IMG/VR virus record: IMGVR_UViG_2728369393_000013
Reading direction: 5' to 3' (one strand)
DNA: 36,573 bases
Origin: a virus
Taxonomy: Duplodnaviria > Heunggongvirae > Uroviricota > Caudoviricetes
Positions 1,205 through 35,910 of the stretch are shown piece by piece. Positions within the stretch are counted from its first letter, which is position 1. Each line of letters starts with the position of its first letter. A program made the position numbers and the translations under genes. Below the pieces are notes generated by a model. The model saw only the letters and a program-made list of their open reading frames with translations. It was not told the DNA's origin and ran no database searches.

Positions 1205-1759
1205 AAAATAATCTCGGTGTGAGATGCTTTACGTCTTCCAAGCCCCCTTCCTTGCCGTAAATGGAAAGATACATCTAATTATAGAATTTATATGTTTTAC
1301 CCTACGGCAGTGCTGGCCATTCAATATCCTGTGCAGTTGACGTATCAACACGGTTCAGCAATACCCGATACTTTTTCCATGCTTCCAGCAACGAGATTTC
1401 TTCCTCCGTTGCAATTTCCAGATCTGCAGCATCCTGAAGCGGCGCAATATGCTCACTGGCTACCTGCATCAGGTTGTTTTTTGTTTCTTCCGCCTCCCGG
1501 ATCCGGAACAGTTTTTCTGCTTCTGCATCTTTCACCCAGGCTGTGCCGTTCCACTTCTGAAACTCCCCTTCCGGCGATAACCAGGTAACATTTTCCGGTA
1601 ACGGACCGAGTTCAGAAATAAATAACGCGTCCCCTGACGCTACGTCATAAACCGTTTTACCCGATGGTCTTCAACGAGATGCCACGATGCCTCATTGAGG
1701 TAGCCTGAGTTTAACGGACACTCCTTCCTGAAATAGAATGGCATCAGAAGGAGCTAATA

Positions 1760-19390: not shown

Positions 19391-19590
19391 TTCACTTTCT
19401 TAAATCTAACGACAGACGGCTAACATTTAAGTATTGTGAAATATTATCAAATGCAATCATCATTGATTTACAAAAGATACATTTTGCCCCGAAAGGATTC
19501 CTGTCAGAAACATCAAAAGATGATGTTCTATACTGAGAACCATGGCAACACGGGCATCTAAAGTGAATATGGTTTGTAATATTTTCTACC

Positions 19591-19803
19591 TCAAAGTGCC
19601 ACAACATGAACAGCCGCGGGGCCTTTAGGTCCGTTCTCAATACCAAATTCGACTTCCTGATTCTCAGTTAACGTTTTGAAATCGTTGCTCTGAATAGCTG
19701 AGAAATGGACAAACACATCTTTGCTACCATCTTTCGGCGTGATGAAACCAAAACCTTTTTCAGGGTTAAACCATTTCACTAAACCAGTCATTTTGTTAGA
19801 CAT
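19591..19803 (-). CDS. cspI: Cold shock protein, CspA family (70 aa)
   Basis: [38 protein letters not shown]... canonical CSD with RNP motifs. Confidence 0.9.
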
Positions 19804-20166
19804 CATTATTACCTTTTGAAGAAGTTAGCCCTTGGGCAGAATGGTCCGAAAAAAAATATCAGAGAGAAAAACCAACAAGGAAATCTCAAGAGGTACAAAT
19901 AATAAAATTATAACAATGACTGCTTCAGATAATTTTGTAACAAACCAGAACACCATTAACGCATGATTAACCAACCATAGCAAGGATTACTTTTGTAAAG
20001 AAAAACACACGAATGAAACAATAGCTTTATTTATTAATAAAACGTGTCATTCTGTCTAATGACCTTTTATCTTACCCTTAAGATTTCAAGGATTTTGACT
20101 CATGGAAGAGTCCTTTTTATTTAAATTTCACATTCAGCGCTAAAAATAATCCGATTTAATATTAAT

Positions 20167-22760: not shown

Positions 22761-23039
22761 TATTGTGGTGCTTTTTGTGGGAGTCATCCACTTACGCACT
22801 TTGTTTTGCTATGCTAGCAGTTAGCTTCTGCTGTAAAACTATTCATGCAGCAAACCTGCACTTCACCACAATGGTTAGCATACTTTTCCTGATTAAGTTA
22901 TTGCCAAATATGCTGGCCATTGTTTCATGTATTGGATCTCCTTACTATTTATTAAAGAGATCCAATATTCACCACTCTGTCTGTATCTCCACTCAGGCAT
23001 CAGCCTTCTTCGTTATCGTATACAGACAAACTATTAATT

Positions 23040-23255
23040 TTAATCAGTAATTATGACATTTGCTGCTGCAGGACCTTTAGCACCACTCTCTACAGAGAAG
23101 GTAACCTTTTGACCTTCAAATAAGGTTCGAAAATTATCATTCTGAATCGCAGAAAAATGCACAAACACATCTTTACTACCATCAACAGGAGAAATAAAGC
23201 CAAAACCTTTATCAGCGTTAAACCATTTTACTAAACCAGTCATTTTATTTGACAT
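23040..23255 (-). CDS. cspB: Cold shock protein CspB-like (71 aa)
   Basis: [53 protein letters not shown]... Confidence 0.9.
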
Positions 23256-23555
23256 TCTACATTCCTTAACTTGAGCCTTTCGGCATAAATGGCTTGTATA
23301 ACAGAAACGACTTCGTACTTAATTGGAGAGACTCAAAGAAGGAATAAGTGAATAACACCTGAAATGAGAACTGCTTTAGTAAACTACTTCGTATATCGTC
23401 TGTTCTTCAAACCGACGCAATCATTAACGCATAGTTGAACATATGAAGCAATGTTTATTTTAGACATCCAGCCATCTTCAACCCCATCAAAAAACTATAG
23501 CTTTCTTCAGGAACGTGTGTATAGTGCGCCAAGTTATCAGTATTAAGGAATTTTT

Positions 23556-25883: not shown

Positions 25884-26636
25884 TTATCTCGTCACTTTTC
25901 TTAATTGCACCTCAGCATATGCTTCTTCCTGCCAGCACTTTGTAACCAGTTTATCAATGACATCTGCATATCCTTTGTACCACTGATAATCCGTCAGGTC
26001 TGGTACCAGCTTCTGGACATGACACCGCGCCAGTGTCGTTGGTAAACGACTAAACCGGTTTCCATTGCAACGCCCACAAACCTTATAAACAGGCGTGCTA
26101 TGAAGCCGGGTTCTTTTTTCATCCAGGACAATACCTTTCCCCTTACACCCTCTGCACGCTGTGCTGACTTCTCCCTTACCATGGCAATGCTGACATAGTT
26201 CCTTCACCCACTCTTCCTTGATAACAGATTCCCCACTTCTGGAGTGTTTCACCACTTCGCGCAATACATTATGAAATCCAGTACCAGCACAATACTCACA
26301 GCGAGCCTTACTTGCCGCAGACCTGGAATAATCAGCAAAGGCAAAATTCACAAGGTAAGGGATGATCTGTAACCGGATTTCTTCACTCAATTTGTTCAAT
26401 GTCGGATTATCCATTGCCATCGCGTAATTGAGCAGACCTTCAATCGCAAACTGAGGATCCTGAACACCAACTTTTGCCAGGAATAAGGCAAAACCAAGCG
26501 GAGCTTTCGACTGCACCATCCCCTGCGCAGCCATCACATCTGTTATTGTTAAACCACCCGAGCCTGTCGCCGGTGCGTCATCACTCAATTTTGGAGATTT
26601 TGGGGAGTAATATTTTGGTAAAGCTTCAAGGTTCAT
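25884..26636 (-). CDS. quuQ: Late-gene antiterminator Q (250 aa, zinc-finger type)
   Basis: Cys-rich motifs (CEYCAGTG, CQHCHGKG, CRGCKGKG, CGRCNG); length and position upstream of lysis region. Confidence 0.8.
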   Translation of the reverse strand: MNLEALPKYYSPKSPKLSDDAPATGSGGLTITDVMAAQGMVQSKAPLGFALFLAKVGVQDPQFAIEGLLNYAMAMDNPTLNKLSEEIRLQIIPYLVNFAFADYSRSAASKARCEYCAGTGFHNVLREVVKHSRSGESVIKEEWVKELCQHCHGKGEVSTACRGCKGKGIVLDEKRTRLHSTPVYKVCGRCNGNRFSRLPTTLARCHVQKLVPDLTDYQWYKGYADVIDKLVTKCWQEEAYAEVQLRKVTR

Positions 26637-30857: not shown

Positions 30858-31090
30858 GCTGCACCTCCGAGATGCTTCATGTTTTTTCCGGAGCGAAAGG
30901 CTATAAGCGGCATACTGACGCGGTAATTACGGCCCAGCGGTTCACAAACCACCTTCTGACATTCACGGTCAACCAGGCTAACACGTAGAACATGCCCTGC
31001 AGGCGTGGTGTACCACTGACCAACGGTAGGAATTGATGTTTTTTTACGCTGAAGCAAACGGCAAATATTGAGGATCAACGGATTAAGCAT
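30854..31090 (-). CDS. Hypothetical protein (78 aa), translationally coupled to neighbours
   Basis: ORF overlapping stop of upstream and start of downstream gene by 4-8 nt. Confidence 0.4.
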   Translation of the reverse strand: MLNPLILNICRLLQRKKTSIPTVGQWYTTPAGHVLRVSLVDRECQKVVCEPLGRNYRVSMPLIAFRSGKNMKHLGGAA

Positions 31091-31919
31091 GACGATGCCC
31101 TCCGCTGATATTCAGGAAACGGTGAATATGAAGATTAGCCTTATCCGCCAGACGAATACGTTCAGCCTGCAAGTTAAGAAGGGTTTCTACCAGAACCTGA
31201 TGCGCCTGCGGATCCGAAAGAGTTACCTTGCGCAGAGCACGTAGTGCAGTTGTTACATAGCTGAGTTTATGTAAGTCTTCATCATTCAGACGAGTGAGGG
31301 CTGGGACAGTAGCCATGATGGCAGCCTCCGTATGCAATGGATAACTTCCACCACCGGAAACGCCAATTTCGCTGGTGGTGAACTGAGCAGGGTTGGCGTA
31401 ACCGGCGCATACGGAAACCGGCGCACCTTTCGGTGCCCCCACCCAGCCCACCATAATTTGGGTATAGCTGAGTTGTAGCAACAAAAAAGACGCTAACGCG
31501 CCAATTGTCGCCGTATGCAATTCCAGGACGCCAATCCCGGCACCCGCTTTATAAGGTGCCTGAACAGTGTAACGTCCCGGAATGGCAGAATCAATGTGCT
31601 GGTGGTCCTTCACACTCAACAAAATCACGCCTGAATTTCCACAAAGGGCTAAAGCACTCATGCGGGTAGTCTTTGCGAAGATAGATAACGCGCTGTGTTT
31701 CTGGCTCCCAACGAATAACATGAACATAAAGTCCTCTTCCGTCACGAAACCAGCGGTTAAGTTCCTGCACAACTCGCCCCCCACAGTCAGGTAAAGTTCT
31801 CTGTGGTTACTTACAGCCAGGAGATTTGGTAATCTGCATTCATGCCGTAACAACAGGTGTTCAGCGACGCTGACCACCAGCTGTTGCGACAAACGGTTAT
31901 TTGCCGTTAAACTGTTCAT
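31083..31919 (-). CDS. Hypothetical protein (278 aa) in replication module
   Basis: Long ORF in operon orientation; no motif recognised by eye (no Walker A). Confidence 0.45.
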   Translation of the reverse strand: MNSLTANNRLSQQLVVSVAEHLLLRHECRLPNLLAVSNHRELYLTVGGELCRNLTAGFVTEEDFMFMLFVGSQKHSALSIFAKTTRMSALALCGNSGVILLSVKDHQHIDSAIPGRYTVQAPYKAGAGIGVLELHTATIGALASFLLLQLSYTQIMVGWVGAPKGAPVSVCAGYANPAQFTTSEIGVSGGGSYPLHTEAAIMATVPALTRLNDEDLHKLSYVTTALRALRKVTLSDPQAHQVLVETLLNLQAERIRLADKANLHIHRFLNISGGHRHA

Positions 31920-32427
31920 GCGTTAGTTTCTCCACAGACACAAAACGCCACGACGCCCGGAGCTGCACACTCGCGGCGTCACTCTTTTCTGGAGCGCAAA
32001 AGATTTTGTAGACCAGTGCTGCATGCTCCTGGAGCTTCGAAATTGACAGATACAACTCATCATTAATTGCTGTCTGCTCGTGTGGCTCTACTACCCCATC
32101 TTCGATTGCCGAACGAATCTGCTTTGAGTAACTCCCGATCTGTTCGATGACTTCCAGCAGGCGCTGGTTTATATCGGCGTTCTCTACTTCCTCAATTTCA
32201 GGAAGCGATACAAACACCCCACCAGCAGACTGTGCGACAGCATCCGCAATGTAGTGAGTGCCAGCCGCGCGCTGTAAAATCATTGCCCATCCCAGCGGGA
32301 AAATCTGATCGCCATCTGCACGAAGGCGGTTGAATAAAGCGTTCTCTGTTACATCCAGCCACTCAGCAGCTTCAGCGTAACCCCCGGCAACGCCGCGATA
32401 GTTTTTCTGACAGCTTTCACGTACCAC
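31897..32427 (-). CDS. Putative YdaT/CII-like regulatory protein (176 aa)
   Basis: Position immediately downstream of cro-like gene; family assignment from memory only. Confidence 0.35.
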   Translation of the reverse strand: MVRESCQKNYRGVAGGYAEAAEWLDVTENALFNRLRADGDQIFPLGWAMILQRAAGTHYIADAVAQSAGGVFVSLPEIEEVENADINQRLLEVIEQIGSYSKQIRSAIEDGVVEPHEQTAINDELYLSISKLQEHAALVYKIFCAPEKSDAASVQLRASWRFVSVEKLTHEQFNGK

Positions 32428-32508
32428 TCAGGCTGTTTTTCTACTTTCCAGTGATGCTTACCCACGGTTAGCCTCATCGTTCTGTGGTTAAAAATTGAAG
32501 GTGTTCTG

Positions 32509-32709
32509 TTAATCTTTCGGATAGATATCCGGTCTTAAGTCAGATTTCGTAATTGCACCTGACGTGCATTGCTCAAGTTTTTTAGCCAGCACAAAACTGG
32601 CTTTTTTATAACCATTGAAAACCAGCCGTAAGTAGCCTGGTGTTGAGCCAACTTTTCCGGCCAACTCGCCCTGCTGTTCTTTGGTTAAAGAGTCCCAATA
32701 CGCTTTCAT
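32509..32709 (-). CDS. Cro/YdaS-like HTH protein (66 aa)
   Basis: MKAYWDSLTKEQQGELAGKVGSTPGYLRLVFNGYKKASFVLAKKLEQ has HTH; GGAGG SD 8 nt upstream; divergent from cI. Confidence 0.6.
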   Translation of the reverse strand: MKAYWDSLTKEQQGELAGKVGSTPGYLRLVFNGYKKASFVLAKKLEQCTSGAITKSDLRPDIYPKD

Positions 32710-32799
32710 ACAATATGTACCTCCGGTATACATATTACATGATTGAGATGAATCTTCAAGATACTTGTACCTTATCGGTACAAAGGTTTTAATTTCTTT
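32710..32799. promoter_or_regulatory. Divergent cI/cro promoter-operator region with perfect palindrome TTGTACC-TTATC-GGTACAA (32765-32783)
   Basis: Palindrome seen directly; TTGAAG-16-TAATAT on minus strand toward cro; TTGTAC-18-TTTAAT on plus strand ending at cI ATG. Confidence 0.55.
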
Positions 32800-33474
32800 A
32801 TGAAAACAGTCCATGACATCCGGCGGTCTAACGCCAGAAAACTGAGAGATGGTGTTGGCGGGAATTCTTCCTTTGCCACCATGATTGATCGCGAGCCAAC
32901 CCAGACCAGCAGGTTTATGGGAGATGGTGCTACTAAAAATATCGGTGACAGCATGGCACGACACATCGAAAAATGTTTCGACCTGCCTGTCGGATGGCTC
33001 GATCAAGAACACCAGACAACGAACATCACAAAAAAACCTGATGTTTCAATCACTAATAAACAAATCACATTAGTCCCTGTCATATCATGGGTACAGGCCG
33101 GAGCATGGAAAGAAGTTGGATATTCTGAGGTTGATTTGAGCACAGCAGAAACGTATCCCTGCCCTGTACCCTGTGGGGAAATGACTTATATCTTGCGGGT
33201 GATAGGTGATTCAATGATTGATGAGTACCGCCCGGGAGACATGATTTTTGTCGATCCTGAAGTACCTGCCTGCCACGGTGACGACGTTATTGCATTGATG
33301 CACGATACAGGTGAAACCACCTTCAAAAGGTTGATAGAAGATGGGACACAGCGTTATCTCAAAGCGTTAAACCCAAACTGGCCTGAGCCTTACATTAAGA
33401 TCAACGGTAATTGCTCTATAATTGGTACTGTGATTTTCTCAGGAAAACCAAGAAGATACAAAATCAAAGCCTAA
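32800..33474 (+). CDS. CI-type repressor with C-terminal S24 (LexA-like) autopeptidase domain (224 aa)
   Basis: C-terminal GDSM (Ser nucleophile) and downstream Lys; architecture like P22 C2/lambda CI. Confidence 0.8.
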   Translation: MKTVHDIRRSNARKLRDGVGGNSSFATMIDREPTQTSRFMGDGATKNIGDSMARHIEKCFDLPVGWLDQEHQTTNITKKPDVSITNKQITLVPVISWVQAGAWKEVGYSEVDLSTAETYPCPVPCGEMTYILRVIGDSMIDEYRPGDMIFVDPEVPACHGDDVIALMHDTGETTFKRLIEDGTQRYLKALNPNWPEPYIKINGNCSIIGTVIFSGKPRRYKIKA

Positions 33475-33488
33475 TCAATGTTTATGAA

Positions 33489-33510
33489 CCTGCTTCGGCA
33501 GGTTTTTTTA
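33489..33510 (+). terminator. Rho-independent terminator after cI
   Basis: CCTGCTTCGGCAGG hairpin followed by T7. Confidence 0.75.
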
Positions 33511-33513
33511 TAC

Positions 33514-33542
33514 TTGACAGTGTACCTTTGAGATACATAATG
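33514..33542 (+). promoter_or_regulatory. Candidate sigma70 promoter (TTGACA-16-CATAAT) immediately after cI terminator
   Basis: Near-consensus -35 and -10 hexamers seen directly; overlaps TGTACC operator-like motifs. Confidence 0.45.
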
Positions 33543-33624
33543 TACCCAAGAGAAACAACAAACAGGCAGGACGCCCACGAAGTAGCCGCCTGGGGCATAT
33601 GAAGTCCAGGATGATTCGTTAGCA

Positions 33625-33650
33625 ACAAAAAAGCGCCCTATAGGACGCTT
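33625..33650 (-). terminator. Rho-independent terminator (minus strand) for DUF1311-like gene
   Basis: On minus strand AGCGTCC-TATA-GGGCGCT hairpin (one mismatch) followed by T6. Confidence 0.5.
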
Positions 33651-33676
33651 CGCTCTTTAACAATCTGGATGACTTA

Positions 33677-34189
33677 TTACTCAGATTTGAACTTTGGTTC
33701 TGGCAAAAGAGGAGGAGTTGAGTCCTCGAATCGTAGCCAGTGCTCCCAGATATCGTGGGATTGTAATTCCAGAAGACCAATTTGACGTGATGCAACTGCA
33801 GTGCCAGCTATAGTTCCTCCTGCATAATCAACCTGGACGGACTTTGACGCTTTCTCAATTAATTCTGTCCAAGCTTCACTTTCCGCGTTAAAAGAAGCAG
33901 TTAATTCCTGCAGACGCTGTGGATCATCCTTGTTGTCTTGTTTCAAACGATTCAGGGCGGCCACCGAATACTTATTCTTAACCCAACTAACCTGAGCTAA
34001 CTGAACTCTCTGACAAGCGTCCATATCAGTAGTTGTTTCCTGAGGCATATCAAAGCAGGAAATAAAAAAAGTCTCAACACCATCATTTAGACTACTGCTC
34101 GGCTGGTTCAAAGCATCAGAAGCATTGGATGCTATCGGTATTATCAGTGCTACCGACAGAATCAAACGTTTAACATAAATCGCTCCCAT
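33677..34189 (-). CDS. Secreted DUF1311 (LprI lysozyme-inhibitor-like) protein, 170 aa, moron between cI and pL
   Basis: N-terminal signal peptide (KRLILSVALIIPIASNA); C-terminal EAWTELIEKASKSVQVDYAGGTIAGTAVASRQIGLLELQSHDIWE matches DUF1311 pattern as recalled; SD GAGGGG before ATG. Confidence 0.5.
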   Translation of the reverse strand: MGAIYVKRLILSVALIIPIASNASDALNQPSSSLNDGVETFFISCFDMPQETTTDMDACQRVQLAQVSWVKNKYSVAALNRLKQDNKDDPQRLQELTASFNAESEAWTELIEKASKSVQVDYAGGTIAGTAVASRQIGLLELQSHDIWEHWLRFEDSTPPLLPEPKFKSE

Positions 34190-35085: not shown

Positions 35086-35910
35086 ATGTCTCAGAACTTA
35101 GACGCAACCGCAATTAATCAAATCCATGCTCTTATTTCTGCTCAGGGTGTTAATGAAATTATCAGTAAGATTGGTGCCGATGCCGTGGCATTGCCTGAGA
35201 ATTTCCGCATTCATGATCTGGAAAAATTTAATTTAAATCGCTTCCGTTTCCGTGGTGCGCTTTCCACTGCCAGCATTGATGACTTTACCCGTTATTCTAA
35301 AGATCTTGCAGATGAAGGCACCCGCTGCTTTATCGATGCCGATAATATGCGAGCCGTCAGTGTGCTTAACCTGGGTACTATTGATGAACCAGGTCACGCA
35401 GATAACACCGCCACTCTCAAACTGAAAAAGACAGCACCGTTCTCTGCCCTGTTGTCTGTTAACGGCGAGCGTAACTCCCAGAAGTCACTGGCAGAATGGA
35501 TTGAAGACTGGGCCGACTACCTTGTGGGCTTTGATGCTAATGGTGACGCCATTCAGGCAACAAAAGCGGCTGCGGCAGTCCGTAAAATCACGATTGAAGC
35601 AAACCAGACCGCTGATTTTGAAGATAGTGACTTCAGCGGCAAACGCTCCCTGATGGAATCTGTCGAAGCGAAGACCAAAGACATTATGCCAGTGGCATTT
35701 GAATTTAAATGCGTTCCGTTTGAAGGCCTGAAAGAACGTCCGTTTAAATTACGCCTCAGCATTATCACTGGCGATCGTCCTGTACTGGTTCTGCGCATTA
35801 TTCAGCTGGAAGCAGTGCAGGAAGAAATGGCTAACGAATTTCGTGATCTGCTTGTTGAGAAATTCAAAGACAGCAAAGTAGAAACCTTTATTGGTACTTT
35901 TACCGCCTGA
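35086..35910 (+). CDS. yfdQ: YfdQ-like (DUF2303) prophage protein, 274 aa
   Basis: Length and gene order match CPS-53 yfdQ-yfdR pair; assignment from memory. Confidence 0.5.

Follow-up and report, generated by a model that had tools for sequence, protein, structure and literature searches.

The window analysed in this work (the whole 36,573-nt stretch of DNA, in which all positions are counted) contains two divergent regulatory genes, a cro-like gene on the minus strand and a cI gene on the plus strand, separated in the list of open reading frames by a 90-nt spacer (32710–32799). The features recognised on the cro side are as follows:

31897–32477, minus strand: ymfL, similar to CII of the phage 186 type (CP76; Pfam PF06892, E 8.6e-13), located downstream of cro.
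32509–32709, minus strand: cro-like gene of the ymfT/croE type, an open reading frame of 66 aa with a weak Pfam match to YdaS/HTH_3.
32720–32724, minus strand: Shine-Dalgarno (SD) sequence of cro, GGAGG, inside the putative operator Oa (see below), with an anti-SD duplex of −10.9 kcal/mol.
32732–32759, minus strand: predicted cro promoter (PR-like), with −35 TTGAAG at 32759–32754, a 16-nt spacer, and −10 TAATAT at 32737–32732.

And those of the cI side are:

32765–32793, plus strand: cI promoter (PRM-like), with −35 TTGTAC at 32765–32770, a 17-nt spacer, and −10 TTTAAT at 32788–32793.
32800, plus strand: inferred cI transcription start, at the A of the ATG, transferred from K-12 differential RNA-seq by 99% identity.
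32800–33474, plus strand: cI repressor gene (YmfK/CohE type, 224 aa), assigned by open reading frame, Pfam, alignments, and an AF2 model.
33097–33102, 33211–33213, and 33325–33327, plus strand: codons of the cI residues A100-G101, S138, and K176, respectively, placed by alignment.
33486–33512, plus strand: intrinsic terminator of cI, a stem-loop (33486–33505) and then a T run.
33514–33541, plus strand: PL-like early promoter, TTGACA and CATAAT with a 16-nt spacer, agreeing with the consensus at 11 of 12 positions.

The RefSeq names of these genes (ymfK, ymfT, and ymfL) are those of the K-12 cryptic prophage e14, the cro-like gene being ymfT, a YdaS family HTH protein, and the cI protein of the window is identical to K-12 YmfK (CohE) at 223 of 224 residues. 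At the DNA level, the 1.3-kb region comprising cro, spacer, and cI shares 98–99% identity with phages SfV and SfIV, and 96–99% with Stx2c-converting phages, phage cdtI, and others. Matches to this region were found in 2587 of 5426 complete E. coli genomes, 1316 of which had at least 80% of the region covered. No RNA family was detected by Rfam at the gathering threshold within 32400–33700. It is very probable that 32710–32799 represents the right-operator/promoter region of a lambdoid immunity module of the e14/SfV type. As the immunity regions of e14 and SfV are the same element, we have rated the module as already known, namely the repressor/anti-repressor control region of e14/SfV-type E. 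coli prophages. Its weight as a discovery is little, GenBank having annotated the operator region (26377..26445 of the SfV record, 69 bp labeled "putative operator region" and equivalent to 32715–32783 of the window) and the leaderless ymfK start having been published (see below), and the immunity type is a common one, found also in Stx2c-, cdt-, and serotype-converting phages.

Five related 17-mers with the consensus TGTACC-N5-GGTACA appear at the locus, three between cro and cI and two just after cI, and they have been labeled as putative operators:

32716–32732, no strand: putative operator Oa, TGTACCTCCGGTATACA, centered at −76 from the cI ATG, a member of the repeat family and a conserved block.
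32749–32765, no strand: putative weak operator Om, TGAATCTTCAAGATACT, centered at −43 from the cI start, a conserved block.
32765–32783, no strand: putative operator Ob, the palindrome of the original prediction, TTGTACCTTATCGGTACAA, with its 17-mer TGTACCTTATCGGTACA at 32766–32782, found by repeat and motif scans.
33521–33537, no strand: putative operator Oc, TGTACCTTTGAGATACA, located within the PL-like promoter spacer.
33541–33557, no strand: putative operator Od, TGTACCCAAGAGAAACA, over the predicted PL start and 20 bp from Oc.

The stretch annotated in SfV begins with Oa and closes with the palindrome. What the original prediction described as a perfect 19-bp palindrome is instead a 7+5+7 inverted repeat, in which only the 7-nt arms (TTGTACC and GGTACAA) are complementary, the 5-nt center TTATC being non-symmetric. 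The window contains six such repeats with perfect arms versus about 2.2 expected, and a single one, taken alone, is no more than chance. The feature that exceeds chance is the recurrence of one 17-mer and not the lone repeat. A scan of the complete window, as had been suggested together with the palindrome, revealed that TGTACC-N5-GRTACA is enriched (16 strand-hits with up to two mismatches versus 3.1 expected, a number reached by none of 100 shuffles) and that its best sites flank cI. The matches with 0–1 mismatch were exclusively Oa, Ob, Oc, and Od, the same four copies that the repeat finder grouped as a 17-mer family, and the two operator clusters, 132 bp in total, contain 5 of the 25 TGTACC hexamers of the window. 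Matches with two mismatches at 1341, 3818, 21986, 22301, and 33165 were taken as chance, about three being expected; the one at 33165, which most relatives lack, is explained by the conserved codons for CPVPCG.

For the comparative analysis 70 loci encoding cI relatives were fetched, and 32 were analysed, i.e., the window and 31 others with a match starting at or near residue 1, covering cI identities of 40–100% and hosts from Enterobacterales to Halomonadaceae. The proposal of an immunity switch with GTAC-core operators is well sustained by them, the palindrome being one of five related sites around a divergent cI/cro pair whose positions are conserved in the 31 related loci. Among the sites, Ob comes closest to the symmetric consensus, scoring 11–12 of 12 in 31 of the 32 loci (10 of 12 in the remaining one, L034), and its center is located at −26 from the cI start in the window and at −26 to −30 from the cI ATG in the enterobacterial loci, window included. 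The center of Oa lies at −76 to −80 across the 32 loci, and the distance between Oa and Ob is exactly 50 bp in 31 of them. Om, which adjoins Ob (17 bp center to center), is typically TGAACC-N5-GGTACT and reaches at least 9 of 12 at −43/−45 in 23 of 32 loci; it agrees with the consensus at only 8 of 12 positions in the window versus 9–10 in relatives because of T32753, which is a C in K-12 and SfV. On the other side of the gene, each of the 26 enterobacterial-group loci (window included) has Oc 45–77 nt 3′ of the cI stop codon, and Od is usually 20 bp beyond Oc.

In the multiple alignment of the spacer (phylogenetic footprinting) the half-sites are conserved and the 5-nt centers are variable, a pattern that bears on whether the palindrome could act as a plus-strand RNA hairpin or intrinsic terminator rather than as a protein site. 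The consensus scan does list 32765–32783 and its T-rich tail as terminator-like; however, the arms are conserved as sequence, compensatory changes being absent and the loop free to vary, and there are four further occurrences of the 17-mer, not all of which could fold into a comparable hairpin. Furthermore, the palindrome is upstream of the cI start mapped in K-12 (see below) and hence outside the PRM transcript, and a terminator at this point would block upstream transcripts from reaching cI. Given arm conservation, recurrence, and position we have discarded the terminator as highly improbable. Even harder to credit is the binding of a host factor such as LexA, instead of phage proteins, to the GTAC sites. 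It would suit the SOS connection of e14, but TGTACC-N5-GGTACA departs from the LexA box (CTGT-N8-ACAG), the CTG...CAG arms being absent, for which it was rejected on sequence. In addition, the e14 division inhibitor is reported to be SOS-inducible and not LexA-controlled, and the sites accompany cI and cro from one bacterial family to another.

Taken as operators of the phage regulators, the five sites may add some detail to the described module, although nothing surprising. Our literature search retrieved no experimental operator mapping or binding data for YmfK or YmfT, and the map with its conserved spacing offers ready targets for footprinting, being useful as well for predicting homo-immunity between prophages.

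The operators can be placed on the promoters of the locus. Oa spans the cro SD and the predicted cro transcription start (near 32725, read from the sequence), and Om overlaps the −35 of the cro promoter. In relatives, the TAATAT and TTG blocks of the cro promoter are conserved, a GGAGG precedes cro in most cases, and the cro homologues are likewise divergent from cI, with a conserved helix of the GYLRLVFNG type. The original prediction had the palindrome overlapping candidate promoters, which is correct for the plus-strand cI promoter (−35 and spacer), while the core of the minus-strand cro promoter does not include the palindrome, located upstream of it. The second cluster (Oc and Od) lies over the PL-like promoter, operators and promoter together taking up 33514–33557. 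Phage Ayreon has an annotated promoter here, and an equivalent cI terminator is annotated in both SfV and Ayreon.

All this architecture is shared with K-12 e14 (ymfK/cohE, ymfT/croE, and ymfL), including gene order, the 91-bp ATG-to-ATG distance, the five operators, the cI promoter hexamers, the terminator, and the PL-like promoter. The spacers differ at six of 90 nt (32728, 32747, 32753, 32775, 32784, and 32797), none of them in the cI −35, −10, or ATG, although two weaken Oa and Om in the window. A further difference is that ymfL is frameshifted in the window, where a run of five G (32381–32385) replaces the six found in SfV and CFSAN004176. The flanks are also different, ymfM/ymfN and ymfJ/intE in e14 versus an Ash/C4/isrK region and yfdQ/yfdR-type genes in the window prophage. 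SfV and SfIV differ by a few SNPs in operator centers, SfV being a viable phage; the authors of both phages stated that no cII was present, despite which orf36 matches the CII (CP76) Pfam family.

The plus-strand −10 that had been predicted close to the cI ATG is indeed found, TTTAAT at 32788–32793 preceding the ATG (A at 32800) by 6 nt. Transcription starts have been mapped in K-12 by differential RNA-seq (Romero et al., 2014; PMC4681348), with five leaderless mRNAs only in MG1655, three of which correspond to the prophage regulators dicA, racR, and ymfK (PMC4681348). In their Table S3, ymfK has a class I transcription start site (TSS), RVS_(I)-1202156, with a leader length of 0, one base away from the 1202157 of the general TSS table (PMC4681348). 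Counting back from the K-12-mapped start, TTGTAC occupies −35 to −30 and TTTAAT −12 to −7. Since the −35, −10, and ATG of the window are identical to those of K-12, the start mapped in the K-12 allele can be transferred by identity, and the cI mRNA of the window is probably leaderless, as originally proposed. A start well upstream, giving an SD-led cI, would have spoken against it, and the sole K-12 TSS near ymfK is the one at the ATG. The general TSS table contains no start on the cro side or the PL side (PMC4681348), as expected because the prophage is repressed.

The sequence around the ATG is in line with a leaderless message. There is no SD sequence before the cI ATG in the window and none is conserved in the alignment of relatives, the anti-SD pairing amounting to −3.8 kcal/mol for cI versus −10.9 kcal/mol for cro. 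A TnTAAT-type hexamer ends 6–7 nt before the cI ATG in 27 of the 32 loci scored, or in 30 of 32 if an alternative register is allowed, with no conservation of the bases between hexamer and ATG. At the protein level M1 and K2 of cI are invariant, and the homologous proteins share the start position. The −10 itself deviates from the usual pattern: A is found at −11 in just four of the 32 loci, i.e., this near-invariant base is missing in 28, which makes the cI core promoter unusual and probably weak. Alternative plus-strand promoters upstream of Ob were sought by eye (e.g., TTACAT-18/19-GATACT) and rejected, as they have poor spacing and hexamers that are unconserved in relatives.

An alternative explanation is that cI is expressed mainly from an upstream promoter, e.g., a CII-dependent one inside cro or ymfL, as an SD-led or long-leader mRNA, the −10 at the ATG being a coincidence. 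The CII (CP76)-like ymfL downstream of cro means that an establishment promoter may exist, and there are K-12 reverse-strand TSSs about 0.9 kb upstream of ymfK (PMC4681348), which could be taken in its favor. Nevertheless, the only K-12 TSS near ymfK contradicts it for maintenance expression, and neither the lack of a conserved SD before the cI ATG nor the −10 position conserved over 32 loci would be expected from it. Besides, ymfL is frameshifted in the window, and an establishment promoter would supplement PRM and not replace it. We regard this explanation as quite improbable; an additional CII-dependent establishment promoter may exist alongside the leaderless start. With a native leaderless mRNA expected from it, the module could be useful for studying how such messages are translated.

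The repressor carries a C-terminal Peptidase S24 domain (Pfam PF00717, E 1.5e-26, residues 93–212), in agreement with the original prediction. Inspection for a LexA-like cleavage site revealed both an Ala-Gly site and a Ser/Lys dyad, with A100-G101, S138, and K176 aligning to A111-G112, S149, and K192 of lambda cI (PVISWVQAGAW/PVFSHVQAGMF, GDSM/GNSM, and TFKRL/TFKKL in window and lambda, respectively, the lysine of TFKKL being the position of K192A in 2HNF/8GMU). S138 and K176 are nearly invariant among the homologues, and the only one without both (P0080) is also devoid of the A-G site. Among solved structures the nearest relatives of the repressor, by sequence and by fold, are the C-terminal domain of lambda cI and the full-length lambda repressor, the latter (3BDN) being the best Foldseek match of the AF2 model (E 1.9e-9), and for the C-terminal domain they are lambda cI, LexA, and UmuD. 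All of this points to an SOS-cleavable repressor, as had been suggested, and YmfK is listed in the literature as the SOS-sensitive repressor of e14. The iModulon named after YmfT places sulA and recN together with e14 genes, and a Reg-Seq preprint found no consistent footprints for this iModulon.

In the N-terminal domain (about 70 residues) Pfam detected no HTH, unlike in lambda cI. However, the AF2 model predicts four helices within residues 4–59 (pLDDT 81–91), and there are weak matches to the N-terminal domains of SPC32H Rep and of a phage CI, from which residues 1–70 would be a helical DNA-binding domain, consistent with an HTH. R31, T34, Q35, S37, and R38 of the predicted recognition region are invariant in relatives. 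The nearest solved relative of this domain is SPC32H Rep (PDB 5D50; phmmer E 7e-4 over residues 1–75), with 78–80 aligned columns and 34–35% identity in Foldseek, although the match is confined to the first 75–80 residues or so of cI. Rep is reportedly inactivated by an antirepressor and not by self-cleavage.

Of the other K-12 prophage regulators, racR (Rac) and dicA (Qin) were reported together with ymfK as having leaderless mRNAs (PMC4681348). Their proteins and operators are unrelated to those of ymfK. To our knowledge, neither RacR nor DicA has an S24 cleavage domain.

A close parallel in organization is the lambda OR/PRM/PR region, which likewise has divergent cI and cro genes with three related 17-bp operators between them, a further group of operators over the other early promoter, a PRM transcript that starts at the AUG, a middle operator centered at about −42/−43 from the PRM start, and a repressor whose C-terminal domain contains what by alignment appear to be the same Ala-Gly/Ser/Lys self-cleavage residues. 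The operator sequence is unrelated to that of lambda, the operators are 33 and 17 bp apart in the window versus 24 and 23 in lambda, and the promoter-proximal site is over the cI −35 in the window and on the −10 side in lambda. The two transcription starts are separated by about 75 bp (about 83 in lambda), and the window module has no N or cIII and a CII of the phage 186 type.

From this arrangement a mechanism can be proposed, in which the assignment of proteins to sites, the sequence in which these are filled, the activation from Om, and the cleavage itself are inferred. Two back-to-back sigma-70 promoters would produce divergent transcripts, an SD-led cro mRNA on the minus strand and a leaderless cI mRNA on the plus strand. 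In the lysogen, cI dimers bound at Oa (cro start and SD) and Om (cro −35) would shut the cro promoter, and cI on Oc/Od would shut the PL-like promoter. Ob, which covers the cI −35, would be filled either by cI when it is in excess or, once induction has occurred, by Cro, turning the cI promoter off, and from Om cI may have a stimulating effect on its own weak promoter, as lambda cI has from OR2. Upon DNA damage, RecA-stimulated self-cleavage at A100-G101 would release repression and allow Cro to be made.

A debatable step is the sign of autoregulation. In lambda, cI bound at OR2 (about −42) contacts sigma and activates PRM. Om is centered at −43 from the K-12-mapped start, close to the OR2 position, which makes positive autoregulation of the cI promoter plausible; we would still regard a lambda-like positive loop here as somewhat doubtful. 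The same architecture could work with a cI promoter that is only negatively autoregulated, with cI filling Ob first, Om as a helper, and a low and steady level of leaderless transcript. Ob is the best consensus match (11–12 of 12 in 31 of 32 loci) and covers the cI −35, so that plain negative autoregulation fits at least as well as the positive loop; moreover, the 17 bp between the centers of Om and Ob would suit a cooperative pair, and Om is weak in the window (8 of 12). On the other hand, Om at −43 in the enterobacterial loci coincides with the activating position of lambda OR2, the missing −11A in most loci suggests dependence on an activator, and the class I TSS of ymfK was detected in K-12 cells carrying the repressor, indicating that the cI promoter fires while the prophage is repressed. 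With these points on both sides, purely negative autoregulation is a serious possibility that falls a little short of an even chance.

The activated version can be extended to the whole set of loci, as a family that has kept the GTAC operator specificity, the three-site geometry, and a −10 devoid of the −11A from Enterobacterales to Halomonadaceae (cI identity down to about 40%), with a cI promoter obligatorily activated by cI at −43. In this extended form we find it rather unlikely. If true, the logic of the lambda positive loop would here be realized with an operator of unrelated sequence and a core promoter of unusual type.

In the leaderless cI promoter, the -10 hexamer (32788-32793 in the window, and the same position in the related loci L003-L053) carries an A at -11 in only four of the 32 loci compared, and across the related loci it reads mostly TTTAAT, TCTAAT or TGTAAT. 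Position -11 is usually the most conserved one in sigma-70 promoters, and the rarity of A there suggests that we are dealing with a weak promoter, possibly dependent on an activator. Farther upstream, inside cro, we found a hairpin that would halt transcripts coming toward cI from points beyond it, and that may be a by-product of the codons for KKASFVLAKK:

32584-32602, plus strand (antisense to cro): terminator-like hairpin, AGCCAGCACAAAACTGGCT followed by T6

The Halomonadaceae loci (L030-L034, L039, and L053) keep the spacer with three operators, but the distance between the middle and cI-proximal ones (Om and Ob) is 16 rather than 17 bp. No site of the type of the two predicted operators just 3' of cI (Oc and Od) was found within 400 nt past the cI stop in these loci, and therefore the left operator arrangement is different in this clade. 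Of the 5426 complete E. coli genomes searched, 2587 had a match to the immunity region, at as many as six places in one genome; thus, some strains host several prophages or remnants that share this immunity module wholly or in part.

A second immunity system, based on RNA and of the P1 c4 / P4 CI type, may be encoded nearby, since two RNAs detected with Rfam are overlapped by the Ash domain (ca. 31289-31571) of a 278-aa ORF (31083..31919) that contains both:

31371-31458, minus strand: C4 antisense RNA (80.7 bits)
31483-31559, minus strand: isrK (61.2 bits)

This ORF is annotated as "immunity region" in SfV and matches the "Ash protein family" of Pfam, which, given the same overlap, may be a translation artefact. 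Elsewhere in the window, Rfam also identified three other elements:

19545-19961, minus strand: cspA-type thermoregulator 5' UTR
22977-23416, minus strand: cspA-type thermoregulator 5' UTR
1336-1534, minus strand: IS009 RNA element

The cII gene has been stated in the literature to be absent from SfV and SfIV, whereas ymfL matches the Pfam family of phage 186 CII (CP76; E 8.6e-13). In the window the G run at 32381-32385 has lost one base (G5, versus G6 in SfV and E. coli CFSAN004176), which breaks this gene in two; the gene is a pseudogene, unless the missing G is a sequencing error in the homopolymer:

32349..32477, minus strand: ymfL piece
31897..32427, minus strand: ymfL piece

Past ca. 33600 the sequence departs from e14 and SfV, and hence the gene that separates the PL-like promoter from the early-left genes (of yfdQ/yfdR types, starting at 35086) has the look of a moron whose transcription opposes that from PL:

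33677-34189, minus strand: 170-aa gene with a weak match to LprI (lysozyme inhibitor) and its own terminator (33651-33630)
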